Translations under genes and position numbers: made by a program | Origin: a virus | Taxonomy: Duplodnaviria; Caudoviricetes | Length of the DNA stretch: 64,000 nt | Reading direction: 5' to 3' (one strand) | Virus record (IMG/VR): IMGVR_UViG_3300013121_000025 | Span: 1-64,000 of that record | The notes under the pieces: model-generated | Database searches by the model: none | Seen by the model: only the letters and a program-made list of their open reading frames with translations | Told to the model about the DNA's origin: nothing | In this document: positions 12,000-25,249 of the stretch, one piece after another | Layout of the letters: each line of letters begins with the position of its first letter | How positions within the stretch are numbered: the stretch's first letter is position 1

Positions 12000-13424
12000 T
12001 CAACGATAATAATTCATGAAAGCCTGAATTTCTTCCAATGATTTTTTAGAGAATGACTGAAAATAACCAAGTTTTGTACGACCATATAAAATATCTTGTA
12101 CTCTGTGCGCGAACTCGTATTTCATTAAATATAAAATCTCTGTTTCAAATAAGATATTATTATAAAGTTTATGGGATGGATGATATAAATTTAGTAACAA
12201 TTGAATATTTGAACCGTATGTTGTCTTCCATCTTTCAAAAATGTGTTCTGGTATAAATGGGTAATCTTTTGCTTCTTGTAATGGTTTAAACACATTACAA
12301 GGTAATTTTGTTATATGGGACACACTTGGTGTTCTAGTTAATTTATCAACTACTTCTTTTGCCAATATTCTATAAGTAGTAATTTTTCCACCATATATTG
12401 TAATGGTATTTTTATCTCGATTTTCAACTATCTTATATCCTCTTGTATTTGTTCTAGCGTCGTTTCCATCCTCAATTAAGGGTCGAACACCTGCGTATGA
12501 TACTAATACAGAGTTATGGGTCAAATGATAATCAGGTAACAAAAATTGATTAATATTGTTTATAAGATAATCCAATTCTTTTTCTGATATCTTCCACGAC
12601 GATGATTGATCAAGTGCACATGGCTCTTCTGTTGTTCCGATTAGTGTTGTATTGTTGAGATAAGGAACTGCAAATAACACTCTATTATCTTCGGTTTGAA
12701 AAGTAAATGCTTGAGTCGGATGGATAGAAGGCACAATAATATGTGAACCTTTAACGTGTGATATATTAACAGCTGGAGGAGTATCATCGTAAGTAGCATG
12801 TACTTCATTAACCCATGGGCCTGCTGCATTGATTAAACATTTAGCGTACAAGGTGTGTATTTTCCCATGTTGTGAAGCTGTAATTTTCCATTCATCAGAT
12901 ACTTTATCTATATTATGAATTGTTGTATATGTTAAGATATTAGCGTTATATTGTTTTGCTTTCATTGCATTAACAATTACCAAACGTGAATCATCTGTAA
13001 CGCAGTCGGAATATTCAAAACCTTTTAAGTACTTTTGATTTAAAGAGGATTGATTCAGAGTTTTAAAAGTACTTCGTTCATCGGTTCGGATTTTTGTAAG
13101 ATGATCGTATAAAAACAAGCCTAAACGTACGAACCATGTAGGGCGTTTATCTGTTAGTGGTAAGAAAAAACGCTGTGATCTAACCATATTTTGAGCAATA
13201 TTTTGAAGTATTGTACGCTCTTGCAGAGATTCTCTTACTAAAGAGAATTCATTCTGTTCCAAATATCTTAATCCACCATGAATCATCTTTGAACTGGACG
13301 AGGAAGTATATGCTGCGAGATCTGAACGCTCAATCAAAGTAACAGACAAACCGCGCTCAGCAGCTTCTGCTGCTATGCCGCATCCATTTATACCACCACC
13401 GATTATAATTATGTCTGTTTTCAT
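12000..13424 (-). CDS. glpD: FAD-dependent glycerol-3-phosphate dehydrogenase
   Basis: IIGGGINGCGIA, TSSSSSKMIHGGLRYLE, DDSRLV, NAAGPW, YAGVRPL, GGKITTYR. Confidence 0.93.
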   Translation of the reverse strand: MKTDIIIIGGGINGCGIAAEAAERGLSVTLIERSDLAAYTSSSSSKMIHGGLRYLEQNEFSLVRESLQERTILQNIAQNMVRSQRFFLPLTDKRPTWFVRLGLFLYDHLTKIRTDERSTFKTLNQSSLNQKYLKGFEYSDCVTDDSRLVIVNAMKAKQYNANILTYTTIHNIDKVSDEWKITASQHGKIHTLYAKCLINAAGPWVNEVHATYDDTPPAVNISHVKGSHIIVPSIHPTQAFTFQTEDNRVLFAVPYLNNTTLIGTTEEPCALDQSSSWKISEKELDYLINNINQFLLPDYHLTHNSVLVSYAGVRPLIEDGNDARTNTRGYKIVENRDKNTITIYGGKITTYRILAKEVVDKLTRTPSVSHITKLPCNVFKPLQEAKDYPFIPEHIFERWKTTYGSNIQLLLNLYHPSHKLYNNILFETEILYLMKYEFAHRVQDILYGRTKLGYFQSFSKKSLEEIQAFMNYYR

Positions 13425-13771
13425 TTTGTGAATATATTTTTTATTTTGTTTATTATATTATATGGAAACTTTTGTTGTTCATGAATAGACTTGTTGATCC
13501 ATGCTTTCCATTCAGCGTCAGTTTTTCCAACGAGATTTGTTACTTCTTCACCAAGAATATCGACAATAAAATTTCTTGCTTCTTCATCAGAAGTAATGAT
13601 AGTAGATGGTAAATGATTGTTATATACTACAGAGAGGATAACACGTACGAGGGTTATATTGAGTTTAGCAATATATTGATCTATATCTTTATGATTATAG
13701 TCTTTTAATTTGTTTTGATATGCTTTTATTGCTACAATTAATGCTTTAATTTGATCTTCATCGTATTTCAT
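13421..13771 (-). CDS. Hypothetical protein
   Basis: ATGA-coupled to its neighbours. Confidence 0.65.
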   Translation of the reverse strand: MKYDEDQIKALIVAIKAYQNKLKDYNHKDIDQYIAKLNITLVRVILSVVYNNHLPSTIITSDEEARNFIVDILGEEVTNLVGKTDAEWKAWINKSIHEQQKFPYNIINKIKNIFTK

Positions 13772-14013
13772 TTTTTCTCAATATCAATAATCATCGCTTC
13801 CCATGATTCTGGTTTTACTTTTGTCCAATATTCTTCTCCTGTGTCAAATGCACACACATAGTACCAAGTTGTATTGAAAAGTTGTCTATACCAGCGTTTC
13901 GATTCAAGATATTCTTTCATAGTTAATCCAATGAAAATAACTAACAGTTTAACAATTCTTGAGTATCGTTGTATGTTTTCTTTCATATTGTATTTAGGTT
14001 AAAAAATAAGGGA

Positions 14014-14199
14014 TTACGCGTGACGACGAAGTTTAATGTTGTAGAGTTTGAGAGTAGTGGAAGGTAATAAACAGATTTTCTCTTTAAGTTCAAGTTCGTA
14101 TAATTGCTTATCAAATTCCTGATCTAAGAGTGGAAGAAAGGCTACTCCTTTTGCAAGAAGTAATTGAAGCTGATCAATGTTACATGAATTTTTCTTCAT
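14014..14199 (-). CDS. Hypothetical protein
   Basis: 61-aa ORF with AAGGA RBS. Confidence 0.5.
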   Translation of the reverse strand: MKKNSCNIDQLQLLLAKGVAFLPLLDQEFDKQLYELELKEKICLLPSTTLKLYNIKLRRHA

Positions 14200-14265
14200 T
14201 GTAACAATCCTTAATTCACATTACTATTTATTACCTTTTGGTACTAAATTACTATCTCCACAATT

Positions 14266-14688
14266 TTATTGCAAAATTCGTTCTGTAATAAAATAATATG
14301 CTTGCTCTACTATAGGCTTGTGTAAATCGCGTCCAATGTTCATGAATTGATCTTTTGTTAACCATCCTACTTGACCTGTTTCATAATGAGGAGCATTAAA
14401 ATCAGTTACACTTTTAACTTGAACAATATGAATATACATACGTCCAAGATATCGTCCCATAAAATATACATCATTAATAGTATTGGTCATTAGCAACCCT
14501 AGCTCTTCTTCTGCTTCTCTGACAGCTGCAGTTTCATAATTTTCACCAGGATCCACTTTCCCTTTTGCTATTTGAAATTCTGCTCCACCATAAGTTGGAT
14601 CTGATGGAATCATAAACATCATAAGAATCTCACCTTCGTCCGTTACATAAAACGGAATCATACCTGCTCTATCTACTTTTGTTGTCAT
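14266..14688 (-). CDS. Nudix hydrolase
   Basis: Nudix box GKVDPGENYETAAVREAEEELG. Confidence 0.9.
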   Translation of the reverse strand: MTTKVDRAGMIPFYVTDEGEILMMFMIPSDPTYGGAEFQIAKGKVDPGENYETAAVREAEEELGLLMTNTINDVYFMGRYLGRMYIHIVQVKSVTDFNAPHYETGQVGWLTKDQFMNIGRDLHKPIVEQAYYFITERILQ

Positions 14689-14698
14689 TTTTGTTTCC

Positions 14699-15568
14699 TT
14701 ATGCTAAACTCGCATATAAATGGATTTGAAGATTTAGAATAAATCCATACTTCAATGCATATTTTGCTGTATATTCATGGTTAATTTGATTGGCTTTCAT
14801 ATCCAATAACCCTTCATCCCAAAAGGAAATAACCTCATCCACATTTGATCTTTCTTCAATAGTAATGTTATCTTTTTTAGCTCTAAGTTGTTTAGATTTC
14901 TCAGGTTCTGTTTTGTAAATGTTCATAGGACTTACAAATATAGGCTTTCCTGTATTCTTTGCCCACTCATGAGCCCAGTCCGGTACTTCACTATATGGAC
15001 TAAATCTTTCATTTGGAGCAGCCATCACGAATTTCAAACAATCAGCTCTTTCTAAGGTTGCGGGATTCGGTTTAAGATATTTTGTTGCTACTTTATCTTT
15101 TTCATTACATTTTGGACTTACAACATATGTAGTTGACGAATCTAAATCAACATGTATAATACCATTTGATTCTATTTGTGAAATTGGATACCATTTTTTA
15201 GCATACTCAAGAAATGATTTAAGATTAGGTTGTATAGTTGGTTCTCCACCAGTCATTACAAGAATAATTTTACGATTTTCCCCTATTGCCCACGAAGGTA
15301 TTTCCATGTTGTTACTTTTATAAAAATTACTAATCTCATTGTCACACTGTGTTAGTAATTCATCAAATGACAAATTTTCACCTGAATCAAAATAAGTATC
15401 ACAAAAGGAACAATCAAGATTACACATGGCTAATCTAACAAACATTGCTGGATGTCCACGATACGGACCTTCCCCTTGAAGAGTATAGAAGCGAGAGGTT
15501 ACCATTAATTTATTTGTTTCTTGCCCTTTAAAGAATTTTTTACCTACGATTGTATTATTACCGAACAT
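14699..15568 (-). CDS. queE: 7-carboxy-7-deazaguanine synthase (radical SAM)
   Basis: FYTLQGEG, FVRLAMCNLDCSFCDT (CxxxCxxC), TGGEP, ESNG, VSPK, LQIH. Confidence 0.92.
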   Translation of the reverse strand: MFGNNTIVGKKFFKGQETNKLMVTSRFYTLQGEGPYRGHPAMFVRLAMCNLDCSFCDTYFDSGENLSFDELLTQCDNEISNFYKSNNMEIPSWAIGENRKIILVMTGGEPTIQPNLKSFLEYAKKWYPISQIESNGIIHVDLDSSTTYVVSPKCNEKDKVATKYLKPNPATLERADCLKFVMAAPNERFSPYSEVPDWAHEWAKNTGKPIFVSPMNIYKTEPEKSKQLRAKKDNITIEERSNVDEVISFWDEGLLDMKANQINHEYTAKYALKYGFILNLQIHLYASLA

Positions 15569-15574
15569 ATTTAT

Positions 15575-16063
15575 TTACTCCGTTAATTTACGATCTTCTG
15601 GACGATGACCTTCGACCGAAGAAGAATTTTCAGGTGTTTCAAATACTGTCACTTTACGACACCAAACACTATGTGCTTCACTTCTATAACCATTTTCTGG
15701 CAACCAAATATCATTCATATAATTATAGAGGAATTCAGACAATCCTTCGCATCCAGTCTTTTCAACTTCAACCATTTTACATAATCCTTTTTCATGAAGC
15801 ATTTTAAAAGTTGCATATTCTGGATCGTCTGATGCAACAAGAAGAGTGTGATCGAAGTGATCATTTAAAAATTCACGCAACGACTTAAAACCACCATAAT
15901 CAGCTACCCAGTTGCGCACATCCACGGTGTCAGATTCGAATTCGAAATGAAAAGCAATCGCATACCCATGAATTAATTTGCATGCACTATCTGCTTTCCA
16001 TTGTCTGTATGCGATAGAATATCCACGCTCGTGACTATATCTTTTAGTTGTTACATATTTCAT
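15575..16063 (-). CDS. queD: 6-carboxy-5,6,7,8-tetrahydropterin synthase
   Basis: C.LIHGY, WVADYG, FDHT, GCE, VFETPEN; adjacent to queE. Confidence 0.9.
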   Translation of the reverse strand: MKYVTTKRYSHERGYSIAYRQWKADSACKLIHGYAIAFHFEFESDTVDVRNWVADYGGFKSLREFLNDHFDHTLLVASDDPEYATFKMLHEKGLCKMVEVEKTGCEGLSEFLYNYMNDIWLPENGYRSEAHSVWCRKVTVFETPENSSSVEGHRPEDRKLTE

Positions 16064-17078
16064 TATATTTCTCCTGTATAGTTTGTTTTATAAACTGAAG
16101 TTTATTATTAAGATCTATTATACTTAAATCAGATCTGATAATCAATATATTCCATCCGCGATCTTCCGCGTGTTTGATTTTTGCTTTATCCCATTCATAT
16201 TTTTCTTTTAAAGAAGTAAATCGTCCTTTTGGTAATTTACCAGTCGGATTCTCAATTATTTGCTGTTCAGTAGGATGCCATGCAGCTCCATCATATTCAA
16301 CTATTATTTTTAATTGTCTGATTGTAAAATCATATGAATGTTTAATGCTTTGATCTTCATTCCAAATAATCCACTCATTTTTGTTATCTCCACCATAATA
16401 AACCTCGTGGGATGATATTCCTTTCGAGGTACAATAATCATGTAACAATTTAAACACTTCCAATGCTTTCTTTGTGCTCTTATTTCGAGGAATTTGAGTT
16501 CCTTCGTACCATTTTTTATATCGAATATTACCCTCTTCTTCCCCATATTTCTCTATGAAATATTGAAGTCGTGGTTTACCAGCCCAAGGCTTCGTTATGT
16601 TACTCAATGCTTGTTTTCGATTGTTGCAAGCTGTATTATATCTACGTGTTCCTTCTTCTTCTCCGTACTTTTCACACAAATACTCTTTACTTGCTTTTGC
16701 TTTCAACCACACCTCATACTTTTTGATTCCTTCTTCCTGTCCGTATAACTCTATGAATCTTTCTTTTGATTGTGATTTTTTAGATATAACTTCATCATAT
16801 CTACGTTGTCCTTCTTCCTGTCCATACTTACGTTGATAATTAGAAAGTGTTTGAATAGATCGTGTACGAAAATCTTCAAATTTTGCATTCCCTTCTATTT
16901 CACCATATCTTTCAATATACCATTCTCTTGATAAGCGTTTAAAATTAGATTTATTCTTTCTCGCTGCCGCTATATTATTCACCCAATTTTGTTTTAGTTG
17001 TAGGGCCAATTGTGTATCGTTATTTGCTTTATATAAAAACCATTCCCACGAATGAGGTTTTTTTGTTTCAATTTTCAT
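16044..17078 (-). CDS. Putative free-standing homing endonuclease (repeated YGEEEG DNA-binding units + Vsr/DUF559-like PD-(D/E)XK domain)
   Basis: Five YG(E/Q)(I/E)EG repeats; YDF...IIVEYDG..WH; TATAAATA upstream; overlaps the queD start. Confidence 0.72.
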   Translation of the reverse strand: MKIETKKPHSWEWFLYKANNDTQLALQLKQNWVNNIAAARKNKSNFKRLSREWYIERYGEIEGNAKFEDFRTRSIQTLSNYQRKYGQEEGQRRYDEVISKKSQSKERFIELYGQEEGIKKYEVWLKAKASKEYLCEKYGEEEGTRRYNTACNNRKQALSNITKPWAGKPRLQYFIEKYGEEEGNIRYKKWYEGTQIPRNKSTKKALEVFKLLHDYCTSKGISSHEVYYGGDNKNEWIIWNEDQSIKHSYDFTIRQLKIIVEYDGAAWHPTEQQIIENPTGKLPKGRFTSLKEKYEWDKAKIKHAEDRGWNILIIRSDLSIIDLNNKLQFIKQTIQEKYNEICNN

Positions 17079-17102
17079 TGCATATCCATGTATTGTATTA
17101 AA

Positions 17103-17110
17103 TATTTATA
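17103..17110 (-). promoter_or_regulatory. T4-like late promoter
   Basis: TATAAATA on -, about 25 nt before the nuclease ATG. Confidence 0.65.
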
Positions 17111-17133
17111 ATATAAAATTACATGTTTACTAA

Positions 17134-17589
17134 TCAATGACGATTCATTCTAATATTTTGTTCCCACGGAAAATGAATAAAAGGAGAAACAGCAGGTAAC
17201 GTCCACCAATGAATATCAGGTTTAAAGATACTTGTTTCTTTGCAATATATAGTTGCTGTTTTAACTTCGTGTTTAGAATTATAATATGAAGATACTTCAA
17301 GCAAAGTATGTCCACCGTCCGCAATTTCATCAACAATTAGCATACGTTCGCAATCAAAATCTATAAATTTGTTATTATGATTTTTATCATTTCCTTTTCC
17401 TTTTTTAGACGAATAATATAGTAATTGAAAAGGAACATTCATGGTTTGTGATAAAATTAATGCAGGGTATGTACCTCCCCTAGCTAGACCTAAAATTAAA
17501 TCAGGTTGAAAATTTACCTTATCTAAATAATCCATAATATGGTTAAGAGCAAAATGTATGTTGTCGTAAGAAGGATGTGTTAAAATCAT
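17134..17589 (-). CDS. Type I purine phosphoribosyltransferase (Gpt/XGPRT-like)
   Basis: LGLARGG, PRPP loop LIVDEIADGGHTL, C-terminal IHFPWE. Confidence 0.87.
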   Translation of the reverse strand: MILTHPSYDNIHFALNHIMDYLDKVNFQPDLILGLARGGTYPALILSQTMNVPFQLLYYSSKKGKGNDKNHNNKFIDFDCERMLIVDEIADGGHTLLEVSSYYNSKHEVKTATIYCKETSIFKPDIHWWTLPAVSPFIHFPWEQNIRMNRH

Positions 17590-17702
17590 TGTACCTTAAT
17601 GTCCTCTAATTGTTTAAGTTGTTTCCGAATATGTTTCTTGCTTATTTTGCCTTGTTTTAATTGTAATAAGTATCTATTTAAGTATGTTTGTAGATCAAAC
17701 AT
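17586..17702 (-). CDS. Small basic protein, 38 aa (not in ORF track)
   Basis: MFDLQTYLNRYLLQLKQGKISKKHIRKQLKQLEDIKVQ; fills the gap and is ATGA-coupled to the PRTase. Confidence 0.5.
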   Translation of the reverse strand: MFDLQTYLNRYLLQLKQGKISKKHIRKQLKQLEDIKVQ

Positions 17703-17703
17703 G

Positions 17704-18339
17704 TTATTCACCAAGTACTGCTAATTTAAACATTTTTTGGATTCTACGCACTGCTTTAACAGTAAGTTTAATATCTTCCAAAGCATTGTGCTCTTGACGT
17801 TCTTTAAATCCGAGCAAATTAAATAAATCGTCAGAATTGTAAGTTCCGAACAATGTCCATCCAAGTGGATAAGTATCAATTAATCTATTGCTGAAACTTA
17901 ATTCAATACCTTGTCTGCGCATTAATCTTAAAAGGAATGCTTTGTCAAACATTACATTATGTCCTAATAAACTAATATAGCTATCCGGACCCCAATATTT
18001 CAAAATAAGATTAGCAATTTGCATTACTGCTTGTTCTTCTGTAACTCCATTTTTCTTTAAGTATTCACGTGTCAGTCCGTGTACTTTTTCAGTGCCAGCG
18101 TCCCATGTATAATCACCTGCTACTTGGATTTCAACATATAAAGATTCTACTTCTTTTAATGTATCAGCATCTAATACTACAAATCCCCACGATACAGAAG
18201 GAAAGATTTCTCCCGTTTTTGGGTTGTAAGAAGGATCATCACATCCCAATGCTACACCACCTGTTTCACAATCTAAAGCAAGGACATATTTAAAATAGCC
18301 TTTTGGTTTATCATTCTTCTTCATCGTTCCATTCTCCAT
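17704..18339 (-). CDS. DEDDh 3'-5' exonuclease (DnaQ/RNase T-like)
   Basis: LDCETGG, GHNVMFD, IDT, HNALED. Confidence 0.9.
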   Translation of the reverse strand: MENGTMKKNDKPKGYFKYVLALDCETGGVALGCDDPSYNPKTGEIFPSVSWGFVVLDADTLKEVESLYVEIQVAGDYTWDAGTEKVHGLTREYLKKNGVTEEQAVMQIANLILKYWGPDSYISLLGHNVMFDKAFLLRLMRRQGIELSFSNRLIDTYPLGWTLFGTYNSDDLFNLLGFKERQEHNALEDIKLTVKAVRRIQKMFKLAVLGE

Positions 18340-18484
18340 CTTCTAAGTAAACTTCGTCGTGTATTTTTGTCATTGTTTTAGGTGTAACTTCTACCAATAT
18401 AGAATGCTCTTCTACATCGGGGGTATGGTTTTCTTTCGGGTCAGCTTTTATTGCTTCTTTCTGCTCAGTGTGTGCCTTGCTCAT
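18311..18484 (-). CDS. Small acidic protein, 57 aa (not in ORF track)
   Basis: MSKAHTEQ...EDGEWNDEEE; AAGGA RBS and promoter directly upstream. Confidence 0.6.
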   Translation of the reverse strand: MSKAHTEQKEAIKADPKENHTPDVEEHSILVEVTPKTMTKIHDEVYLEDGEWNDEEE

Positions 18485-18510
18485 GATTATAATATCCTTA
18501 TGTAAAAAAT

Positions 18511-18539
18511 ATTATATATGATTTTTAAAAGGATATCAA
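18511..18539 (-). promoter_or_regulatory. sigma70-type promoter
   Basis: TTGATA-N17-TATAAT. Confidence 0.7.
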
Positions 18540-18593
18540 CTTTTACCATAAATACCTTAGAACAGGTATACGGGCCTTCGTGGATACTTAACT

Positions 18594-19520
18594 ATGAAAA
18601 AACAACTATGGACTATAGATAATAAAGCAAACCATAATTTTAAAAGTAATAATTTTTATGTATATGAATTAGTTAATCCTATTACGAATCTTCCTTTTTA
18701 TGTTGGAAAAGGAAGAGATAATAGAGCATGGAAACAAATACAATTACGAAATAATATTAAAGAAAGCAAATACAATCCACACAAATATAATACCATTAAA
18801 AAATTAATTAATGACCAACAAGTCATAATAATTAGAATTGTTCTATCAACATTAAATGAACAAGAAGCGTTTGAAGTTGAACAGGATTTAATTGCGACTT
18901 ATAAACGAGTAAACGAAGGAGGAATTTTAACAAATATTTGCAGAGGTGGAGAAGGATCGACTGTAAATGGAAAACCTGTCTCAAAATTCACAAAATGGGG
19001 TGATTTTGTATGTACTTATCCCAACGCAAAAGAAGCTGCAAGAATTAATGGATGGAAACATTATAGTGTAATTTGTAGCTGTTGCAAAGGCAGAGAAAAA
19101 TCGTATCAAGGTTGGTTATGGGCGTATGAAGGAAATGTGCCGTCTCTTTTAACTAAGAACAAACCTGTATATAAATGGGATATGTTCGGAAATTTAATTC
19201 AAATTTACGATAATGCATCTGTAGCAGCACGTGCACATTCGTGTGATCCTTCCACGATATTAGATTGTGTTGCAGGAAATATTAAAACAGCAATGGGGCA
19301 TATTTGGACGAATAAAAAGGAATTTAAAGCTCCTAATATAATAGTACGAACAAAACGAGTGCGGCATAACGAAACAGGAATTATATATAATAGTGTTACT
19401 GCTGCAGCAAAAGCTACAAATCATACAATACAATCTGTTAGTTTTTGCTGCAATGGAAAACGTACAAAGGTTGGTAGTGATACTTTTAGTTATGCTGAAG
19501 ACGCTTCAGATGTCCAATGA
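18594..19520 (+). CDS. GIY-YIG homing endonuclease with NUMOD1-like HTH repeats
   Basis: FYVYEL..P...PFYVGKG..NRA, EQDLI, LTN...GGEG; repeated Y.(N/S)..AA..(I/V)..CC.G; opposite strand to neighbours; CATAAATA at 18547. Confidence 0.85.
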   Translation: MKKQLWTIDNKANHNFKSNNFYVYELVNPITNLPFYVGKGRDNRAWKQIQLRNNIKESKYNPHKYNTIKKLINDQQVIIIRIVLSTLNEQEAFEVEQDLIATYKRVNEGGILTNICRGGEGSTVNGKPVSKFTKWGDFVCTYPNAKEAARINGWKHYSVICSCCKGREKSYQGWLWAYEGNVPSLLTKNKPVYKWDMFGNLIQIYDNASVAARAHSCDPSTILDCVAGNIKTAMGHIWTNKKEFKAPNIIVRTKRVRHNETGIIYNSVTAAAKATNHTIQSVSFCCNGKRTKVGSDTFSYAEDASDVQ

Positions 19521-20050
19521 ATTCCAACATCCCTATTATATTGACCTTGATATTGTTTTGCACTTTCAGCACTTATGAATGCGATCTGTGCAATTCTCAT
19601 ATTTCGTTCAATAAATGTTGGTCCCAGGTGATTGTGTAAGGTTGCACCAATATTACCTTTAAAAGAAGAATCGAAAATTCCCGAACTTAATACACATCCG
19701 TTTCTAGACAAGGAACTACGTATTACTAATATAGCTGCTGCCTTTTCTGGAACATTTACATAAAAATCTGACATTATATCATACGCAGTATGAGCAGATA
19801 ACCACCATCCTTCGATACTAGGAAATTGGTTATGATATAATATTTCAGGATAACACTCTGTCATCTGTCTGTTTCGTTTACCATTATTTTCTGTAATGAT
19901 AAAATCATCAGATGTTGTTATTTTGAATATTTTACTTACTACCCAATCTATTGCATCGGGTTGCACACATTTTTCACGTTGTTCTTCAGTCATCCAAGAT
20001 GGAAAGATGATCCATCCTTTTTCGATTGCTACTTTTGGATTTATAAACAT
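19490..20050 (-). CDS. Trimeric dUTPase / dCTP deaminase family protein
   Basis: QPDAID, RSSLSRNG, GIFDSSFKG, RIAQI, YQGQY. Confidence 0.85.
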   Translation of the reverse strand: MFINPKVAIEKGWIIFPSWMTEEQREKCVQPDAIDWVVSKIFKITTSDDFIITENNGKRNRQMTECYPEILYHNQFPSIEGWWLSAHTAYDIMSDFYVNVPEKAAAILVIRSSLSRNGCVLSSGIFDSSFKGNIGATLHNHLGPTFIERNMRIAQIAFISAESAKQYQGQYNRDVGIHWTSEASSA

Positions 20051-20883
20051 TAATTACCACCTCTACATTTTTCGTTAATAATATCTTTGTTATAGTGAGC
20101 TAATTTAATTAAATGCTCATCAGTTGTATGAAAATCAAATTCCACTTCTGCTTCATATTTTCCATTTAAAAGACCAGTTGGAGAGTTGTCATATGCAATA
20201 CTGTTTAACCCGTGCCAAATTGCTGTACTGGAATCCCACGAAAAAATATATTCATGATACTCTCTTACTAAGTCAATTTCGTTTGGACCATCGACCATGC
20301 CGAGAAAATGAATTTTCTTACCATTTTGTTTAATACGATCAAGAATCCCATGCTTTTTAAGAAGATCCATTATCTTCCAACGAGACATGAAACGTTGGAG
20401 TTTATTTCCTTTTTCGATACTACCGAAAGCATTCGGAGCACCAAGAATAGAATTACCAATAAAATCAACGTTAGATGAACGAGAAGCATAATCCCAAGCT
20501 TCTAAATAATCTTGTAAATCTCCAATTGTGCTTTGTGGTACGAAAAATGTTTGAAATCCAGCATTGTGAAAAATTGGACCTAATTCTTCAGCAGCTTCGA
20601 TTGTTTTACTTGCACGTTCGTTAGGATAATCTGACATTACAATAACATCCGCTTTAACTTTGTTACCCATTTCGAGTAATTTATCAGAGGGATACATGGG
20701 ACGTCCTTGTTTATACATTTCGAAACAAGAATTATCGAGGATTTTTAACTCTTTACGTTGTTTATACCAGTAAGCATAATGCGAATCTGATTCTACTAAA
20801 TGTGCCAAGATCAAATGTGCTTGATTGTGATGACAGAAATCATCTAAATGTGGGGTAGGACTAATGTGACAAAATTTAATCAT
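20050..20883 (-). CDS. dpdA: TGT-fold DNA 7-deazaguanine transglycosylase candidate (divergent DpdA-like)
   Basis: ILDNSCFE, IVMSDY, FVPQ, IHFLGM and SWDSS match TGT/DpdA motif order; clustered with queD/queE. Confidence 0.7.
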   Translation of the reverse strand: MIKFCHISPTPHLDDFCHHNQAHLILAHLVESDSHYAYWYKQRKELKILDNSCFEMYKQGRPMYPSDKLLEMGNKVKADVIVMSDYPNERASKTIEAAEELGPIFHNAGFQTFFVPQSTIGDLQDYLEAWDYASRSSNVDFIGNSILGAPNAFGSIEKGNKLQRFMSRWKIMDLLKKHGILDRIKQNGKKIHFLGMVDGPNEIDLVREYHEYIFSWDSSTAIWHGLNSIAYDNSPTGLLNGKYEAEVEFDFHTTDEHLIKLAHYNKDIINEKCRGGN

Positions 20884-21248
20884 TTAATATCGCTCCTTAA
20901 ATATGGAATTGTAATATCTGTTACTATATTACCATCGAGAATATTACCAACAGTAACTAATTTAAATACAAAGTCTGTCACACCTGATTCTTTTAATGCT
21001 TTAAGAATTGGAACATTGAGCTCTTTACAATCAGCTACTAACCAACCATCTTCAATTCTTAAATTATGAACTGAATGTGTAATTTCGTCGAGGTGTATGC
21101 AAGAAACAGAGGTGTCTTTTTGTATTGATGCGAACATAGTGTGTTCCGGATTAATTTTTTGTAATGCTTTTTCAATTTCTTTTGTTGGATATACATAACC
21201 TGTACGTGAAGAAGGTAAATCCAGTTCTACGATTTTATATGTTTGCAT
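20880..21248 (-). CDS. Degenerate prohead-protease (gp21-like) fold protein
   Basis: GYVYP..EIEKA, IHLDEITH.V..L.IE...L.A......P..K.L...G; catalytic motifs absent. Confidence 0.45.
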   Translation of the reverse strand: MQTYKIVELDLPSSRTGYVYPTKEIEKALQKINPEHTMFASIQKDTSVSCIHLDEITHSVHNLRIEDGWLVADCKELNVPILKALKESGVTDFVFKLVTVGNILDGNIVTDITIPYLRSDIK

Positions 21249-21591
21249 AAAGGATTGATCCATTTTCTCCATCTTCATTTACATCACATTTACTTAATCC
21301 AAAACAATCAATTAATTCTTGTGCAATCATCTCGCAAGATTTTGCTCCAAATACATGTAAGTATTGATCCTCGTTCCAATAACATCTTTTAAAATATTTG
21401 ATAATTTGATGCTTAAGAACAATAAATTCGGTATCTCTATCATGATGACCTACTTGTTTATATGCTTTAATATGAAATACATGTCGGTGTGGATCTCTAA
21501 GATAGGCTACTTCGTCAAATGGACATCCAGGCCAATTATGGGTTCCTTCGATTTGAAGTGTGCAATAAACTTCTGCTACAGTATTAGTCAT
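21235..21591 (-). CDS. QueD-paralogous T-fold protein (DpdL-like, candidate CDG decarboxylase)
   Basis: EGTHNWP, LRDPHRHVF (LxxxHRHxF), DRDTEF, SCEMIA, EDGENG. Confidence 0.7.
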   Translation of the reverse strand: MTNTVAEVYCTLQIEGTHNWPGCPFDEVAYLRDPHRHVFHIKAYKQVGHHDRDTEFIVLKHQIIKYFKRCYWNEDQYLHVFGAKSCEMIAQELIDCFGLSKCDVNEDGENGSILYANI

Positions 21592-21922
21592 TATTGTCTC
21601 CTAAAAACTTATTGAATGTTTCTTGGAATTGTGATTTTGTTTTTGCACCAATAATAGTTGTTCTTGGTTGCTGTTCAAAATCATCTAAAATTAGAATAGT
21701 GGGAATATTTCTAACCCCATATTTTACTGCAACGTAATCACAAGTTTCGACGTTTATTTTAATAAAAGTAGCATCATATTTTTCGGACAATTCTTCGAAA
21801 ATTGGTGCAATCATTTTACAAGGACCGCACCAATCAGCATAGAAATCGACCACAAAGGGAGGGGCGAAATTTAATTTAATATTAGCAAATTCTTCTTCAG
21901 AGTTTACATGAATTACAGACAT
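21584..21922 (-). CDS. trxA: Thioredoxin
   Basis: DFYADWCGPCKMIAP, IPT. Confidence 0.93.
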   Translation of the reverse strand: MSVIHVNSEEEFANIKLNFAPPFVVDFYADWCGPCKMIAPIFEELSEKYDATFIKINVETCDYVAVKYGVRNIPTILILDDFEQQPRTTIIGAKTKSQFQETFNKFLGDNND

Positions 21923-21946
21923 ATACTATACCTCTTTTAAAGATAT

Positions 21947-21975
21947 AGTATACGTCATTTCTATTAAGGAATCAA
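21947..21975 (-). promoter_or_regulatory. sigma70-type promoter driving the trx-dpdL-dpdA-dut operon
   Basis: TTGATT-N17-TATACT. Confidence 0.7.
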
Positions 21976-22650
21976 CTATTTTTCAAGAATATATTCAATC
22001 ATTATTTCAAACACATTAGGATCAAATCCCATCCCCATATGACTGCTTGAAACTTGTTTACGTTTCGATAATGGATCGGATTCCATAAAGCAGCTCATCC
22101 AATGTACTACACCATCTTTCTTAGAAAAAATATTGAGGCTTGGTTTGTTGATGGGTTGTCTAATCATAACATCAATCATTTTTAACTCTTTGAGATCTTG
22201 GTTTGACACGAGTTGATAAATGTCTGTGATGTAATTTGAAAATATATTACCAAAAGGACTTCCAATTGTTATTACTTTTTCGACGTTTGGAGACAAACGG
22301 GCTAATTCACGTGCATAAATTCCACCAAGACTCCATCCGATTAAAATAACTTTTTGGTTATGTTTTTTGGAGATTTCTTCGATCATTTTATACATTGATT
22401 GAAGTTTTTTAATGGAAAATTTAGTATTAGATTCTTGATTCCAACCATATACAGAAAACCCGTTATTTTGCAAGTAATGTCTCATTGGTTTAGTTGACCA
22501 ATCCCCTGTTAAGAAACCAGGAATAATGATAATTGGAATTTTCTTTCCTCTGTGGGAAGATATATTTTTATGTTTTATAAAAGAAGCAAAATCTTTTATT
22601 GTACGTGGAACTTCGAGTAAAACATTTTTGAATAAAGGACGTGTTGGCAT
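21976..22650 (-). CDS. Alpha/beta hydrolase (esterase/lipase-like)
   Basis: IPGF, GWSLGG nucleophile elbow, GSPF, DGVV, SHMGM (Ser-Asp-His). Confidence 0.88.
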   Translation of the reverse strand: MPTRPLFKNVLLEVPRTIKDFASFIKHKNISSHRGKKIPIIIIPGFLTGDWSTKPMRHYLQNNGFSVYGWNQESNTKFSIKKLQSMYKMIEEISKKHNQKVILIGWSLGGIYARELARLSPNVEKVITIGSPFGNIFSNYITDIYQLVSNQDLKELKMIDVMIRQPINKPSLNIFSKKDGVVHWMSCFMESDPLSKRKQVSSSHMGMGFDPNVFEIMIEYILEK

Positions 22651-22661
22651 ATAGAAACCTC

Positions 22662-22973
22662 TCAATCATAATCATGCGCCATTAAAATCTTTGATCTGAT
22701 ATCACGCACCGTGAGACCTTTATACCACTCCCCTCTAACATGAAAAGATTGGAATTGTTGGTGCAAGTATGTTTCTATTTTATATGCTTCGTTACGTTGT
22801 TCAATATGTTCTAATATGATTTGTTGCGGATTGCCTGTTTGTAATGTTTTGATACGTTCTTCTATATTATTAGTGACACCTATTTTCAATAAATCTCCGC
22901 AAGAAAGTATATACAAATACTCTTGTTTTTTTGGTCGTTTCTTTTTTGATAAGATTTCATCAAGATGTCTCAT
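22662..22973 (-). CDS. T5orf172/MUG113-type GIY-YIG domain protein
   Basis: YLYIL..LKIGVT..IEERIKTLQTGNP, IE..LH, RGEWY. Confidence 0.85.
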   Translation of the reverse strand: MRHLDEILSKKKRPKKQEYLYILSCGDLLKIGVTNNIEERIKTLQTGNPQQIILEHIEQRNEAYKIETYLHQQFQSFHVRGEWYKGLTVRDIRSKILMAHDYD

Positions 22974-22997
22974 ATTTGTATTTATGAGACAAAGAAA

Positions 22998-23023
22998 AAG
23001 CCGAAAACTTTCGTAATCGGCTT
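22998..23023 (-). terminator. Intrinsic terminator after 23077..23265
   Basis: AAGCCGA/TCGGCTT stem followed on - by TTTCTTT. Confidence 0.55.
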
Positions 23024-23076
23024 AAGAGGTGTTGTTATTATTGTTTATTGTTATTATAACAGCAGTGATTTTTTAA

Positions 23077-23265
23077 TTAAACACGCTCAACGTACCAGCT
23101 TTCTGTACGTGTTTCAACAAGGCCACCACCAGCAGCTACACGACGGGTCGCTGTGCTACGAGATTGTGACTGTGCACTCACGAAGCGAGCGAACTGTCGG
23201 ATAGACTTGAAGAATACTGTTTGTTCAGTGTCAGTATTAACACCAATTACTGGAATACTACGCAT
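23077..23265 (-). CDS. Small basic, possibly DNA-binding (NUMOD1-like) protein
   Basis: Strong AAAGGAG RBS; FKSIRQFARF. Confidence 0.65.
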   Translation of the reverse strand: MRSIPVIGVNTDTEQTVFFKSIRQFARFVSAQSQSRSTATRRVAAGGGLVETRTESWYVERV

Positions 23266-23292
23266 TTTGGTTCTCCTTTGAGGTTAGTTAAG

Positions 23293-23898
23293 TTAGTTTT
23301 TCAGTTGTACATTGGCATTTAGTGCCAATTCGTTTAGATTTTGTATAACAAAATCAATTCTTTCATCAATATTACTCATTGTAATATATTTTAATTTGTT
23401 AGTCAACGAGTCCTGGAACATCTTTTTCATGAAATGTTCCATAGTAACATCTATCATTGCGGCATAATGATGATTACTGCCTCGTACACCATCATATTCG
23501 ATTTGGAATTGTCCACCAGGAATGAAGAAAACACCAGCATAATATTGGTTATTAGTTTTACAAGTTTCGTAATATTCATTGACCCAAGAACTATTTTCGT
23601 TAAATTTGCCTAAGTTCATAAGAGCATATACAAATAGATCTGTATGTGTGCGCTCGGTGAACCAAATATCTTTTGATTGAATTGCTTCCATTTCGTCTTC
23701 TAATTTACGAGCAGTAATTTTATCTTGGAAACGCTTACATAAGTTGTTGTTAGCGTTCACTTCATCAAGAGTTATATTCCATTCCTCTAAAATTGAACGA
23801 GAAGTTTTGCGATATACCACTTGGTATCCTCTTTCTTCGAGGCCAGCTAGTAACCTACTTTTTCCACTTCCTTGTGATCCCATTATCGAAATTAACAT
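23293..23898 (-). CDS. P-loop nucleotide kinase (AAA_28/dNMP-kinase-like)
   Basis: GSQGSGKS, FTERTHTD, DGVR. Confidence 0.75.
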   Translation of the reverse strand: MLISIMGSQGSGKSRLLAGLEERGYQVVYRKTSRSILEEWNITLDEVNANNNLCKRFQDKITARKLEDEMEAIQSKDIWFTERTHTDLFVYALMNLGKFNENSSWVNEYYETCKTNNQYYAGVFFIPGGQFQIEYDGVRGSNHHYAAMIDVTMEHFMKKMFQDSLTNKLKYITMSNIDERIDFVIQNLNELALNANVQLKN

Positions 23899-24629
23899 TT
23901 AGATGATTCTCCCACTAAAGAGACTATTTTATGATGAGTAAATTGAGGGAACTTACGCTTGTAATACTCCATAGACTGATCAATCTTTTTAACATCATCT
24001 GTTGATTTAAACTTAATAATGTTATAACCAGACATAAAAGCGTTGATAAAATCAGGCATCATTGTGACTTTAATACCATTATAATAAATCTTGTTTATAT
24101 CACAATTAAAGTAATCATTGATATAATTAACTGGTTTTTGATTTGTAAAAATGAATACAAAACGAAGACCGATTTGTAAGTCTGTTGTTTGTCCTGGACA
24201 AATATACATGTGTTTAGTTATAATTTCAGAACCATTTACAATAGTATGTGTAGGAGGTTCATTTCCTTGAAATACTGCATTCATTAGAGCAGAAAAATTA
24301 ATAGTAATCATCCCCGTTGTATGATCCACTTGAGTTACTATTCCGTCTCCTTCAAACTTATAATCAGGACTTGGTAATTTAAAAAAGTCATCCACTAATT
24401 CTTTATACGATTTCTTTGTAGTAATTAGTGAAGAATCAATAATAAATGTCATTTTGTCTTCATGAGTTTCCAACATGTGACTTCTAACATAATCACCTGC
24501 AATAACTACTCCTGAATCCATTCCGATTTTGTATGGATAAGGAAAAAGAGTAATACCACAAGCATTTTTTATATTATCAATTAAAGCACTTAATGGTAAA
24601 TTAAACGGTTGGTGATTCAGTTTGATCAT
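23892..24629 (-). CDS. Degenerate nucleotidyltransferase (CCA/poly(A) polymerase head-like)
   Basis: VIAGDYVR resembles xxAGGxVRD; FNCDINKIYY resembles FDF.I....Y; catalytic DxD not evident. Confidence 0.4.
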   Translation of the reverse strand: MIKLNHQPFNLPLSALIDNIKNACGITLFPYPYKIGMDSGVVIAGDYVRSHMLETHEDKMTFIIDSSLITTKKSYKELVDDFFKLPSPDYKFEGDGIVTQVDHTTGMITINFSALMNAVFQGNEPPTHTIVNGSEIITKHMYICPGQTTDLQIGLRFVFIFTNQKPVNYINDYFNCDINKIYYNGIKVTMMPDFINAFMSGYNIIKFKSTDDVKKIDQSMEYYKRKFPQFTHHKIVSLVGESSKC

Positions 24630-24972
24630 TTTCTAACGCCTTCAGTTGATCGTTCAGTTTTTGTAATTCAGTTGTTAATAAATTTTTCGAGTTTTCAAAT
24701 TGCACTAACATATCAAATATTTTTTCATTGTTTTTTGTTAGTTTAGAAGTGTAATAAGAATCCTTGGTTTTAGTAGAACTCTTATCAATTGCTTCTTTGT
24801 ATTTTTGTGACACTGCTATCAATTTATTGATTTCAATATTATACTCATATTCATGATTCTCAATCAACGCTTGCAGTCTATTAATTTTAAGAAGTAATTT
24901 GTTACTTTCAGAAAATTGAAGTGGTATTTCTATTTCTTGTTCTTGTTGTGGTTCTTGATCATCTGATTTCAT
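24601..24972 (-). CDS. Coiled-coil hypothetical protein
   Basis: Heptad-rich K/E/N/L sequence. Confidence 0.7.
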   Translation of the reverse strand: MKSDDQEPQQEQEIEIPLQFSESNKLLLKINRLQALIENHEYEYNIEINKLIAVSQKYKEAIDKSSTKTKDSYYTSKLTKNNEKIFDMLVQFENSKNLLTTELQKLNDQLKALENDQTESPTV

Positions 24973-25225
24973 ATTGTCCCTTATTATATGCGTCTTCTTG
25001 TTTAACTTGAATTATAGCTTGTATTTGCATTATGCCCCTTTCGATCTGTAAGGCCATTTCAGTCTTTCCTAAATCTAATGCAATATAGTATCTATTCTGT
25101 AAAATTCTTAGTTGATCATACAAATCTGAAATGGAGGATTCAAGCCATACTTGTCCTCCATTGACTTCTTCAATAGGTTGTTGAGTGATAGGGGTTTTAT
25201 TAGAGTTTACGTCTATTCCTGACAT
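24959..25225 (-). CDS. Hypothetical protein
   Basis: First ORF after the promoter at 25250-25278. Confidence 0.7.
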   Translation of the reverse strand: MSGIDVNSNKTPITQQPIEEVNGGQVWLESSISDLYDQLRILQNRYYIALDLGKTEMALQIERGIMQIQAIIQVKQEDAYNKGQYEIR

Positions 25226-25249
25226 ACTATTTCACTTTTATAAAACAGT

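Follow-up and report, generated by a model that had tools for sequence, protein, structure and literature searches.

The window analysed here is a stretch of 64,000 nucleotides from the IMG/VR record IMGVR_UViG_3300013121_000025, a fragment of a giant phage that carries a known gene set for replacing guanine with 7-deazaguanine in DNA. The region in question (Table 1) is a phiST-like 7-deazaguanine cluster without QueC, in which a DpdA3-type transglycosylase and DpdL are present. The GTP cyclohydrolase missing from the cluster is of the FolE2 type and lies beyond the window, at 150586-151602 of the same record, which also encodes both RNR subunits. All genes named in an earlier sequence-only reading are found in their places on the minus strand. 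Its description of the gene order is also correct: the PRTase is upstream of queD with a single insert between them, the Nudix gene directly follows queE with a gap of 10 nt, and the ATG of the dUTPase-family gene overlaps the stop codon of dpdA as TAATG.

Table 1. Genes of the 7-deazaguanine cluster and its surroundings (positions in the window)
Feature	Position	Strand	Basis or remark
Nudix hydrolase, 140 aa, generic MutT-like	14266-14688	-	PF00293 E 2.7e-12
QueE, CDG (7-carboxy-7-deazaguanine) synthase, radical SAM	14699-15568	-	phrog_2076 E 8e-45
QueD, 6-carboxytetrahydropterin synthase	15575-16063	-	PTPS PF01242 E 3.4e-15; phrog_2389 E 4.6e-36
344-aa insert between PRTase and queD	16044-17078	-	phrog_22677 E 3e-17
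Small Gpt/XGPRT-like purine PRTase, 151 aa	17134-17589	-	PF00156 E 8.4e-16
DEDD (DnaQ-like) 3'-5' exonuclease	17704-18339	-	PF00929 E 3e-7; phrog_192 'DNA polymerase exonuclease subunit' E 3e-22
GIY-YIG/NUMOD homing endonuclease	18594-19520	+	PF22945, PF07453, PF22083
Divergent trimeric dUTPase/dCTP-deaminase superfamily member, 186 aa	19490-20050	-	PF22769 E 5e-11, PF00692 E 8e-9
DpdA3-type guanine transglycosylase, 277 aa	20050-20883	-	similarity to immuto DpdA; TGT fold in predicted structure
Gene between dpdL and dpdA3, 132 aa	20880-21278	-	overlaps both neighbours
DpdL, QueD-like T-fold protein	21235-21591	-	signature LRDPHRHVF (LxxxHRHxF), residues 31-39
AAA_28 P-loop kinase, 201 aa	23293-23898	-	PF13521 E 6e-13; 1.7 kb upstream of dpdL

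QueE has the cluster motif CNLDCSFC and is 50-56% identical to QueE of Rhizobium and Sinorhizobium phages, while QueD carries a variant motif, CxxxHGY, that is found clade-wide. DpdL, the proposed CDG decarboxylase, is upstream of DpdA3 in 68 of 80 loci, and its family HMM matches phiST CGPG_00067 with E 1e-23. The gene that had been called dpdA stands, refined to the DpdA3 type. Its product has zero sequence matches in Pfam, PHROG and PDB; it is 27% identical to the annotated DpdA of phage immuto_2-6A (E 7e-14), and a Foldseek search of its AF2 model (pLDDT 91.6) against the PDB gave ArcTGT and TGT as the best matches (E 3e-9). The protein is a minimal TGT-like barrel from which the Zn subdomain is absent. 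There are 1496 metagenomic homologues of the window protein. Residues D50, D85 and D217 are invariant in DpdA3 and are placed in TGT-like motifs.

When about 170 related viral loci and 13 cultured phages are compared, the embedded genes fall into two groups: the PRTase and the dUTPase/DCD-like gene are conserved partners of the cluster, and the Nudix hydrolase, the DEDD exonuclease and the AAA_28 kinase are not conserved. The sequence-only reading had taken them as a possible nucleotide-level arm of the deazaguanine cluster. This general idea has strong comparative support, but its roles were pinned on the wrong genes. The Nudix box is intact (GKVDPGENYETAAVREAEEELGL, residues 43-65) and the closest solved structures are of the MutT type, yet zero homologues occur in the related loci, and the gene is specific to this phage and does not belong to the conserved module. 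Pool editing, which had been ascribed to it, has its conserved candidate in the dUTPase/DCD-like gene coupled to dpdA3. The exonuclease, whose matches to DnaQ and oligoribonuclease models are under cut-off, has no homologue in these loci either; it is probably a replication proofreader that is not tied to the cluster. The window kinase belongs to the same Pfam family, AAA_28, as the kinases adjoining DpdA3 in CP220 and immuto. Pairwise similarity is weak (E 1e-3 to immuto gp203, E 1e-2 to CP220 gp057), whereas the latter two are 32% identical (E 9e-20). The related IMG/VR loci have no homologue of this kinase: its presence is confirmed, but linkage to the cluster is absent, as it is for the Nudix gene and the exonuclease.

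Two endonuclease inserts interrupt the region and, like the Nudix hydrolase and the exonuclease, they are outside the conserved module. The 344-aa insert (pI 9.3) has a weak Vsr-like match at its C-terminus, under cut-off (TIGR00632, E 7e-4), and no counterpart across related loci; it is probably a mobile endonuclease, and it does not belong to the pathway. The GIY-YIG gene overlaps the 3' end of the dUTPase-like gene on the opposite strand, and its homologues occupy the same position in two related loci (L008 and L009). The 132-aa gene has no Pfam or NCBIfam match and no homologue across related loci.

Linkage of the PRTase to que/dpd genes in other phages, on which the earlier proposal had been staked, is very tight: que genes are present in 73 of 78 PRTase-centred loci, and 21 of 28 complete clusters contain the PRTase. 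It lies within the QueD/QueE/FolE sub-operon and is a conserved member of this base-synthesis unit. It is present in phiST, CP220 and immuto, the three phages whose replacement was measured at 100%, and missing from five DpdA1/2 phages with partial replacement. It is also absent from the cultured phages Ahp1, RHph_I1_18 and MA9V-3, as from about a quarter of the complete clusters. The protein resembles E. coli Gpt (PDB 1A95-1A98, 1NUL) and archaeal purine PRTases (1VDM, Sulfolobus GpT-1/2) in its length of about 150 aa, in the PRPP motif (VDDxxDxGxT; VDEIADGGHT in the window, residues 86-95) and in the C-terminal W..FPWE segment. Searches with the family profile hit the P. horikoshii purine PRTase 1vdm with E 3e-27 and E. 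coli XGPRT with about 1e-14. In contrast to E. coli Gpt, the phage protein reaches 33 bits against an NCBIfam equivalog cut-off of 138, and the phage PRTases form a viral clade found only in 7-deazaguanine clusters. The window protein differs from its relatives in one loop, with YYSSKKGKG in place of WQTRD. We propose that the PRTase serves guanine salvage. Recycling of guanine, as in the first of the two models in the sequence-only reading, explains this gene better than the second model.

The dUTPase/DCD-like gene, translationally coupled to dpdA3 in the window, follows it in 75 of 80 IMG/VR loci, the remaining five being cut off, and its linkage to the cluster is, like that of the PRTase, far beyond chance. 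The family profile finds the archaeal-type dUTPase 9w59 first (1.8e-19) and DCDs after it; this nearest structural relative is labelled 'probable dUTPase'. In the profile alignment no Glu is aligned with the catalytic Glu of DCD, and the gene scores under the NCBIfam equivalog cut-offs. All characterised members of the trimeric dUTPase/DCD superfamily that we know of use pyrimidine dNTPs. Phages Ahp1 and D479 have a canonical dUTPase in addition to this gene, which speaks against a housekeeping dUTPase role for it. RHph_I1_18 and Bakedbeans have it as the sole member of the dUTPase family, and there it could therefore be a housekeeping enzyme.

A dNTP hydrolase adjoins DpdA3 in five lineages, with three unrelated folds in total: besides the DCD-like protein of the IMG/VR loci, it is MazG-like in phiST, PRA-PH/MazG-like in immuto, an HD domain in CP220 and once more DCD-like in Chryseobacterium phage MA9V-3. 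A nucleotide kinase is paired with DpdA3 in all lineages examined. DUF3310, the domain of the T7 gp1.7 dGMP/dTMP kinase (PMC11897194), is adjacent in 80 of 80 loci and is fused to DpdA3 in RHph_I1_18; the kinase near DpdA3 is of the T4 type (dNMP kinase) in Ahp1 and D479 and AAA_18 in phiST and MA9V-3. In the 153 kb of the present record DUF3310 and a T4-type dNMP kinase were not found. The five partial-replacement DpdA1/2 phages, our controls, have neither hydrolase nor kinase as neighbours. DpdA3 systems are tightly linked, whatever the lineage, with the PRTase, a dNTP hydrolase and kinases. Note that in T4-like relatives the module adjoins clamp and clamp-loader genes, and the synteny of these loci may be due to shared descent and amount to few independent observations.

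The closest described system is the dDG system of phiST (FolE, QueD, QueE, DpdL, DpdA3; PMC10516641). The window shares with it QueD, QueE, DpdL with LxxxHRHxF, DpdA3 and the lack of QueC. phiST likewise encodes a small PRTase and, in the interval from FolE to DpdA3, a dNTP pyrophosphatase and a P-loop kinase. The hydrolase has the trimeric dUTPase/DCD fold in the window and is MazG-like in phiST; here the GTP cyclohydrolase, of the FolE2 type, lies at a distance of 130 kb, the cluster itself includes the PRTase, and DpdA3 shows only remote similarity to its phiST counterpart (HMM E 2e-9). Cui, Hutinet et al. (NAR 2023, PMC10516641) treated the phiST MazG gene as incidental and did not mention the kinase and the PRTase. 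Their conclusion was post-replicative insertion of 7-deazaguanine. They also reported three observations that we take as hints of an exchange at the nucleotide level: replacement is complete with DpdA3, unlike with other DpdAs; in E. coli, in the absence of partners, DpdA3 and DpdL failed; and the modified-base nucleoside was detected in CP220-infected cells.

If the published conclusion applies here, DpdA3 acts on finished DNA, the PRTase only recycles the abundant released guanine, and the dUTPase-like enzyme, the kinases and the Nudix hydrolase are ordinary nucleotide metabolism of a replication region. The TGT fold and the conserved Asp motifs of DpdA3 agree with this, since polynucleotides are the substrates of TGT and DpdA relatives (PMC10516641), as do the resemblance of the DCD-like family to archaeal dUTPases, its sole occurrence in RHph_I1_18 and Bakedbeans, and the neighbouring clamp genes of T4-like relatives. 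In large phages nucleotide genes cluster near replication genes anyway, and we know of no TGT-family enzyme that uses a mononucleotide. However, exchange on finished DNA leaves unexplained why hydrolases of unrelated folds and kinases accompany DpdA3 and not DpdA1/2, why DpdA3 is fused to DUF3310, why a canonical dUTPase is retained as a second one in Ahp1 and D479, and why 100% replacement is confined to DpdA3 systems. We regard it as rather unlikely, though a serious competitor.

The second model of the sequence-only reading has the PRTase build the modified nucleotide. In the form considered here, PRPP and either CDG or 7-deazaguanine would be its substrates; kinases together with the phage RNR would then yield the deoxy-triphosphate for the polymerase, and the Nudix or dUTPase-like enzyme would remove dGTP. 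The earlier reading did not know this route to be described, but the same chemistry is known from tubercidin, where TubE joins CDG to PRPP to form the CDG ribonucleotide in a cluster that also has a Nudix enzyme and no QueC (PMC6112128). The tubercidin and toyocamycin pathways of Streptomyces (TubE/ToyH PRTase, TubG Nudix) share with the window the FolE/QueD/QueE route to CDG and a purine-type PRTase, and they show that a PRTase can accept a 7-deazapurine base. The position of the phage PRTase in the base-synthesis sub-operon, its restriction to complete-replacement systems, the RNR genes of the record and CDG as an intermediate common to CP220, phiST and immuto are all in line with this model. 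Against it, the universal DpdA3 has no role, and PRPP chemistry gives a ribonucleotide, yet the kinases that are fused to DpdA3 or lie next to it (gp1.7-like, T4 gp1-like) act on deoxynucleotides. The clusters and cultured phages without a PRTase also speak against it, as does the non-conserved Nudix gene. Moreover, the window differs from the Streptomyces clusters in having a transglycosylase and no transporter, and the ORFs scanned at 12000-26207 include neither a UbiD-type decarboxylase nor a GMP-reductase-like gene. The PRTase retains the D-x-G motif's Asp, a residue for which a role at N7 is assumed in 6-oxopurine PRTases. Finally, immuto has canonical base-level QueC and QueF (PMC10516641), QueF being seen in our analysis too. 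Taken together, we find this model improbable.

The reading that we prefer, tentatively and from gene context, is that the stretch holds a DpdA3/DpdL-type genome-replacement module with a nucleotide-pool arm. GTP would be converted to CDG by FolE2, QueD and QueE, and CDG decarboxylated to 7-deazaguanine by DpdL. The dUTPase/DCD-like enzyme, our proposed dNTP diphosphatase of the module, would cleave the canonical competitor dGTP to dGMP and PPi. DpdA3 would exchange guanine for 7-deazaguanine at the level of the deoxynucleotide, a nucleotide kinase would rephosphorylate the product and the phage polymerase would incorporate it. The Gpt-like PRTase would return the released guanine to GMP and further to GTP, the precursor of the pathway itself. 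We infer all of these substrates, above all dGTP for the hydrolase and a nucleotide rather than DNA for DpdA3.

The logic is that of T4, where hydroxymethyl-dC is made by the gp56 dCTPase, the gp42 dCMP hydroxymethylase and the gp1 dNMP kinase, and of the Z-genome phages with MazZ, DatZ and PurZ: a hydrolase takes away the canonical triphosphate and yields the monophosphate, on which a modifying enzyme works; a dNMP kinase then brings it back into the pool, and the base is replaced completely. Unlike those systems, the proposal is built on genes, and as its modifier it would have a base-exchanging TGT-fold transglycosylase, a kind of enzyme that to our knowledge occurs in no nucleotide-level pathway. 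Phages with dU-DNA remove the canonical nucleotide by unrelated hydrolases, Dtm and Dtt acting on dT (PMC12697855). The same pattern, unrelated hydrolase families with complete replacement, is found beside DpdA3, although the base is different and, in contrast to the assayed Dtm and Dtt, the substrate suggested here comes from gene context. That a PRTase and a dUTPase-like gene travel with such systems in many other phages hints that the swap of guanine for 7-deazaguanine may take place in the nucleotide pool, contrary to the published model of exchange on finished DNA.

The window comprises the first 64 kb of a record of 153,652 bases with a G+C content of about 33%. Completeness of the record was estimated by CheckV at 44%, so the window comes from a fragment of a giant phage. 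The deazaguanine cluster occupies 14266-21591 on the minus strand, and the genes listed for it in an earlier sequence-only reading are present and were accurately described. No match to the cluster region was found among cultured phages by megablast.

Genes of the deazaguanine cluster and its immediate surroundings in the window
Gene	Position	Strand	Remarks
DpdL (QueD-like T-fold protein)	21235-21591	minus	first in transcription order; signature LRDPHRHVF
132-aa gene, no assigned function	between dpdL and dpdA3	minus	
'dpdA' (DpdA3), 277 aa	20050-20883	minus	
dUTPase/dCTP-deaminase-family (DCD-like) gene	19490-20050	minus	ATG overlaps dpdA stop as TAATG
DEDD exonuclease	between DCD-like gene and PRTase	minus	phrog_192 'DNA polymerase exonuclease subunit', E 3e-22
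Purine phosphoribosyltransferase (PRTase), 151 aa	after DEDD exonuclease in transcription order	minus	
344-aa insert	16044-17078	minus	weak Vsr-like domain
QueD	15575-16063	minus	after 344-aa insert
QueE, then Nudix hydrolase	cluster end, from 14266	minus	last in transcription order
GIY-YIG homing endonuclease	18594-19520	plus	opposite strand
T5orf172/GIY-YIG-type gene	22662-22973		endonuclease-like insert
AAA_28 P-loop kinase	23293-23898		1.7 kb upstream of dpdL

The cluster region is broken by endonuclease-like inserts, namely the T5orf172/GIY-YIG-type gene and the Vsr-like 344-aa gene, and counting the GIY-YIG gene too there are three mobile-looking nucleases inside 7 kb. In three different phages (the window and two related loci, L008:3541-4146 and L009:7002-7718), relatives of the GIY-YIG gene lie on the opposite strand just 3' of the DCD-like gene, which suggests that the 3' end of the DCD-like gene is a recurrent homing site. 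Judging from its PHROG match, the DEDD exonuclease is probably a proofreader. Residues 43-65 of the Nudix protein fit the Nudix box GX5EX7REUXEEXGU exactly (PF00293, E 2.7e-12), and no equivalog-level match to it was found in NCBIfam.

Regarding synthesis of the modified base, QueD, QueE and DpdL are encoded in the window and a FolE2-type GTP cyclohydrolase in the same record, outside the window at 150586-151602, near the genes of both ribonucleotide reductase subunits. QueC and FolE were not found in the record. Residues 31-39 of DpdL conform to the LxxxHRHxF motif that replaces CxxxHGH of QueD; the DpdL family HMM matches DpdL of Cellulophaga phage phiST (1e-23), and Pfam PTPS does not match the window protein. 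As predicted from these genes, the deazaguanine pathway of the record is complete, consisting of FolE2, QueD, QueE, DpdL and DpdA3. In phiST the same gene set is tied to replacement of all dG by 7-deazaguanine (PMC10516641); the window comes from an uncultured phage. QueD of the window and of 36 related loci has CxxxHGY instead of the canonical zinc/catalytic CxxxHGH, and this is kept throughout the family. At 149825-151602 of the record (L186:11825-13602), the FolE2 start is the last base of a Thg1-like gene (tRNA-His guanylyltransferase, PF04446, E 7e-28), which is unusual for a phage. Just upstream of this pair lie the genes of both ribonucleotide reductase subunits and of a further AAA_28 kinase, the second of the record; this kinase was rejected as a DpdA3-linked one, being unrelated to those kinases.

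The 'dpdA' gene product is assigned by profile and structure model to the DpdA3 subfamily, with a predicted TGT-like TIM barrel. BLASTP aligns it with the annotated DpdA of Flavobacterium phage immuto_2-6A at 27% identity over 240 aa (E 7e-14), and its clade HMM matches the proteins of immuto (2e-17), CP220 (1e-7) and phiST (2e-9). Sequence searches with 'dpdA' against Pfam, PHROG and PDB gave no match, the Pfam TGT domain has no match anywhere in the record, and a DpdA3 profile did not find TGT among PDB sequences; the TGT likeness emerged solely from the fold search. The AlphaFold (AF2) model has a pLDDT of 91.6, and each of its top 50 Foldseek matches in PDB is either an archaeosine TGT or a bacterial one (best E 3e-9, TM 0.5-0.58). 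Three aspartates, D50 (ILDNSCFE), D85 (VMSD) and D217 (SWDSS), are invariant among 27 relatives. Their motifs resemble TDSGGFQ, MIFD and MFDCV of E. coli TGT, which hold the catalytic/base-binding aspartates D89, D143 and D264. Aligned by hhalign with single TGT and DpdA sequences, D85 corresponds to D143 and D50 to LDSGAF of the 9g DpdA, in alignments that are not significant. The TGT zinc motif CxCxxC..H is absent from the short window protein, and no DpdA3 fusion longer than 485 aa was found. Isoelectric point was dropped as a proxy for DNA binding: DpdA3 proteins are acidic (4.3-6.1), yet the DNA-active DpdA of 9g is acidic as well (5.64).

The PRTase (PF00156, E 8e-16) is by sequence a Gpt/XGPRT-like enzyme of the type I fold, about 150 aa long, and is not a certified equivalog of xanthine/HG PRTase: with NCBIfam PRK09177 it scores 33 bits against a cut-off of 138. 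Its PRPP motif is VDEIADGGHT in the window and VDDInDxGxT in the family, and the C-terminus has W..FPWE. The family profile matches the Pyrococcus horikoshii purine PRTase 1vdm (3e-27), Sulfolobus GpT-1/2 (~1e-18) and E. coli XGPRT (~1e-14). The D-x-G motif retains its aspartate, a residue held to act on N7 in 6-oxopurine PRTases; a 7-deaza base has no N7, which weakly favours guanine as the substrate. Moreover, guanine is the sole released product common to the systems inserting ADG (CP220), formyl-preQ1 (immuto) and 7-deazaguanine (phiST). The intermediate 7-carboxy-7-deazaguanine (CDG) is likewise common to the three, and TubE of the tubercidin pathway is a PRTase able to take CDG (PMC6112128). 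UbiD decarboxylase and GMP-reductase-like Pfam domains, as in a TubE/ToyH-type pathway, were not found in the ORFs scanned at 12000-26207. Across all models considered, the PRTase probably serves guanine salvage.

Single-protein scans of IMG/VR with DpdA3 or PRTase gave nothing and alignment-based queries were required. The closest DpdA3 relatives, 79% identical, come from Logan assemblies, and metagenomes hold at least 1496 relatives of DpdA3 and at least 378 of the PRTase. A set of 80 IMG/VR loci, with DpdA3 homologues 55-63% identical to the window protein, was searched with the window proteins and family models. The DCD-like gene lies downstream of DpdA3 in 75 of these loci, the other five contigs ending within ~700 nt 3' of dpdA3, and DpdL lies upstream in 68. 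A small DUF3310 gene stands between DpdA3 and the DCD-like gene in all 80; it is missing from the window, and neither DUF3310 nor DNMK was found in the 153-kb record. Of the 28 loci of this set that hold both QueD and QueE, 21 have the PRTase, without exception placed among QueD, QueE and FolE, in varying order. A PRTase-centred scan added 78 further IMG/VR loci, and at least one of QueE, QueD, FolE and DpdL lies within 8 kb of the gene in 73 of them (two or more in 64). The absence of PRTase linkage with que/dpd genes in other phages, named in the sequence-only reading as refuting it, is therefore decisively contradicted. All three phages with measured complete replacement have this PRTase family: in immuto_2-6A it lies between QueE and FolE, in phiST it is CGPG_00045 (E 1.6e-30), and in CP220 (E 5.5e-17) it is two genes away from a radical SAM gene. 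No PRTase was detected in the whole genomes of five DpdA1/2 phages taken as partial-replacement controls (9g, Seurat, phiSM, NP1 and CRB2). The nearest neighbour of the PRTase fails to discriminate GTP supply from use of the end product, as QueE, QueD and FolE adjoin it in turn.

The sequence-only reading had seen in the embedded salvage and sanitising enzymes a possible nucleotide-level arm. Comparison partly supports this interpretation: the PRTase and the DCD-like gene are conserved with the cluster, and the Nudix, DEDD exonuclease and AAA_28 kinase genes of the window, like the 344-aa insert and the 132-aa gene, have zero homologues among ~170 related loci.

Most PRTase-bearing loci of the PRTase-centred set (L098-L173) have DpdL, FolE and QueE, and DpdA3 was not detected within 8 kb. 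The DpdA3 profile also had no match in five PRTase-bearing contigs of 87-161 kb, whose completeness of 24-44% is too low for absence to be claimed. Conserved families of 145, 363 and 158 aa without assigned function are common to the PRTase-bearing loci, as are a HIT-domain gene and a cytidylyltransferase-like gene; by hhalign, none of the conserved unassigned families is related to DpdA3, DCD-like, DUF3310 or DpdL. A family of ~300 aa that is not in the window is encoded between the DCD-like gene and the sliding clamp, immediately 3' of the former (L003:12295-13206 and 53 other loci). Neither Pfam nor PDB gave a match to this family, whose DxD-like FIDSDIGF and EDYMFC motifs recall GT-A glycosyltransferases.

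The DCD-like protein scores above the cut-off with both PF22769 (43 bits) and PF00692 (36 bits), and the motifs NAvDLR, RStLNRNG, GLYDsGYxG and GTRxgQ are conserved in 77 sequences. The nearest solved relative of the family is the 'probable dUTPase' 9w59 (profile 1.8e-19). Its NCBIfam scores are below every equivalog cut-off (64 vs 130 bits for dUTPase, 52 vs 93 for dCTP deaminase). dUTPase motifs I-IV are retained, including the Asp of motif III, and the catalytic Glu of dCTP deaminase (TLE motif) is not at the aligned position, which has V/H in the family and reads ATLHNH in the window. A diphosphatase type is therefore expected, and the protein should be a putative dNTP diphosphatase of the trimeric dUTPase/dCTP deaminase superfamily. 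In Aeromonas phage Ahp1 and Vibrio phage D479 the DCD-like gene is not simply a housekeeping dUTPase: both own a further, canonical dUTPase (85 and 63 bits vs 22 and 21 for the DpdA3-linked copy). The argument is not universal, since a canonical second dUTPase is absent in RHph_I1_18 and Bakedbeans.

In each lineage examined a nucleotide kinase stands next to DpdA3, and in five so does a dNTP hydrolase, the protein families being different.

Gene order around DpdA3 in related phages
Phage or clade	Gene order
T4-like clade (IMG/VR)	DpdA3 - DUF3310 - DCD-like
Rhizobium phage RHph_I1_18	DpdA3::DUF3310 fusion, then DCD-like
Aeromonas phage Ahp1, Vibrio phage D479	DpdA3 - T4-type dNMP kinase - DCD-like
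CP220	HD + AAA_33 fusion - DpdA3 - AAA_28 kinase
immuto_2-6A	PRA-PH/MazG-like hydrolase - x - DpdA3 - x - DpdN - AAA_28 kinase
phiST	FolE - MazG-like - DpdL - AAA_18 kinase - DpdA3
Chryseobacterium phage MA9V-3	DCD-like - DpdL fusion - AAA_18 kinase - DpdA3

The nucleotide kinase gp1.7 of T7, which phosphorylates dGMP and dTMP (PMC11897194), contains the DUF3310 domain (E 4.5e-23). In the window the hydrolase is coupled to DpdA3, and the sole kinase nearby is the AAA_28 protein. Neither hydrolase nor kinase was found in the clusters of the five DpdA1/2 controls by annotation and a Pfam scan of unnamed neighbours; hydrolase presence in 5/5 DpdA3 lineages vs 0/5 controls gives a one-sided exact p of 1/252, the lineages not being strictly independent. 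In Weizmannia phage Youna2 (L091:6387-7705) and Bacillus phage BSTP12 (L092:6336-7684) a DpdA3-like gene with a weak DUF6610 match overlaps the start of DNA polymerase A. A weak P-loop protein of ~185 aa is encoded directly upstream of it, with QueC, QueD, QueE and FolE further upstream, and no dNTP hydrolase was found at these two loci. The cluster is a variant of the known DpdA3/DpdL system, with the PRTase, the DCD-like hydrolase and kinases as conserved accessories.

A dNTP hydrolase, the transglycosylase and a deoxynucleotide kinase form a recurrent trio, of which the hydrolase and the kinase come from families that differ by lineage. Fusion within the trio occurs in some cases, and the partially modifying DpdA systems do not have it. 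In T4, gp56, gp42 and gp1 are the hydrolase, the modifying enzyme and the kinase, and Z-genome phages use MazZ, DatZ and PurZ. By gene content, DpdA3 relatives show the same pattern as the T4 hmC and Z-genome layouts, where hydrolase, modifying enzyme and dNMP kinase stand together. Unrelated hydrolases are likewise used by different lineages of dU-DNA phages (PMC12697855). Complete, 100% replacement is reached by DpdA3 systems only, DpdA3 and DpdL expressed without partners failed in E. coli, and CP220-infected cells contained the modified base as its nucleoside (Cui 2023, PMC10516641). For Campylobacter phages, a route through modified dGTP was suggested in the past (PMC6884629). The phiST MazG gene receives only passing mention in Cui 2023 (PMC10516641), and our literature search found no paper on the PRTase, on the kinases or on DpdA3 acting at the nucleotide level.

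Since the layout of the trio is that of known pre-replicative pathways, and four published observations fit, the reading we prefer, tentatively and by analogy, is a four-step relay. The hydrolase would convert dGTP to dGMP, DpdA3 would exchange the base at the nucleotide level, the kinase would send the exchanged product back to the pool, and the PRTase would salvage the released guanine. The wider proposal is that DpdA3 exchanges the base of deoxynucleotides (dGMP or dG) and does not modify DNA, and that the complete 7-deazaguanine genomes of phiST, CP220, immuto and the large uncultured clade are made pre-replicatively through this relay, its cycle closed by a dedicated guanine-salvage PRTase; it is possible, and open to considerable doubt. 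Exchange on DNA with guanine salvage, the remaining genes being incidental, is the conservative explanation. To our knowledge, every TGT relative acts on polynucleotides and every trimeric dUTPase-fold enzyme on pyrimidines, and both points speak for it; we rate it somewhat below the relay. The suggestion of the sequence-only reading that the PRTase itself builds the deaza-nucleotide appears improbable. DpdA3 would be left idle, the product would be a ribonucleotide whereas the linked kinases are deoxy-specific, and the step cannot be essential because the PRTase is missing from a quarter of the complete clusters.

Among complete base replacements, 7-deazaguanine genomes are the only ones now attributed to an enzyme acting after replication. 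Were the exchange to take place in the nucleotide pool, as in the relay we prefer, the mechanism of DpdA3 systems would need revision and the published post-replicative view would be overturned. There would then be a new reaction type for the TGT superfamily and a purine-directed member of the dUTPase fold. This would account for the failed reconstitution of DpdA3 and DpdL in E. coli and define a minimal gene set for dDG DNA in vivo. 7-Deaza-dGTP, in wide use as a PCR and sequencing reagent, could then also be made enzymatically. The conserved PRTase, DCD-like hydrolase and kinases make pre- versus post-replicative insertion directly testable. Even conservatively read, the Gpt-like PRTase serves well to mark complete-replacement deazaguanine phages in genomic data, and such phages are abundant in metagenomes.
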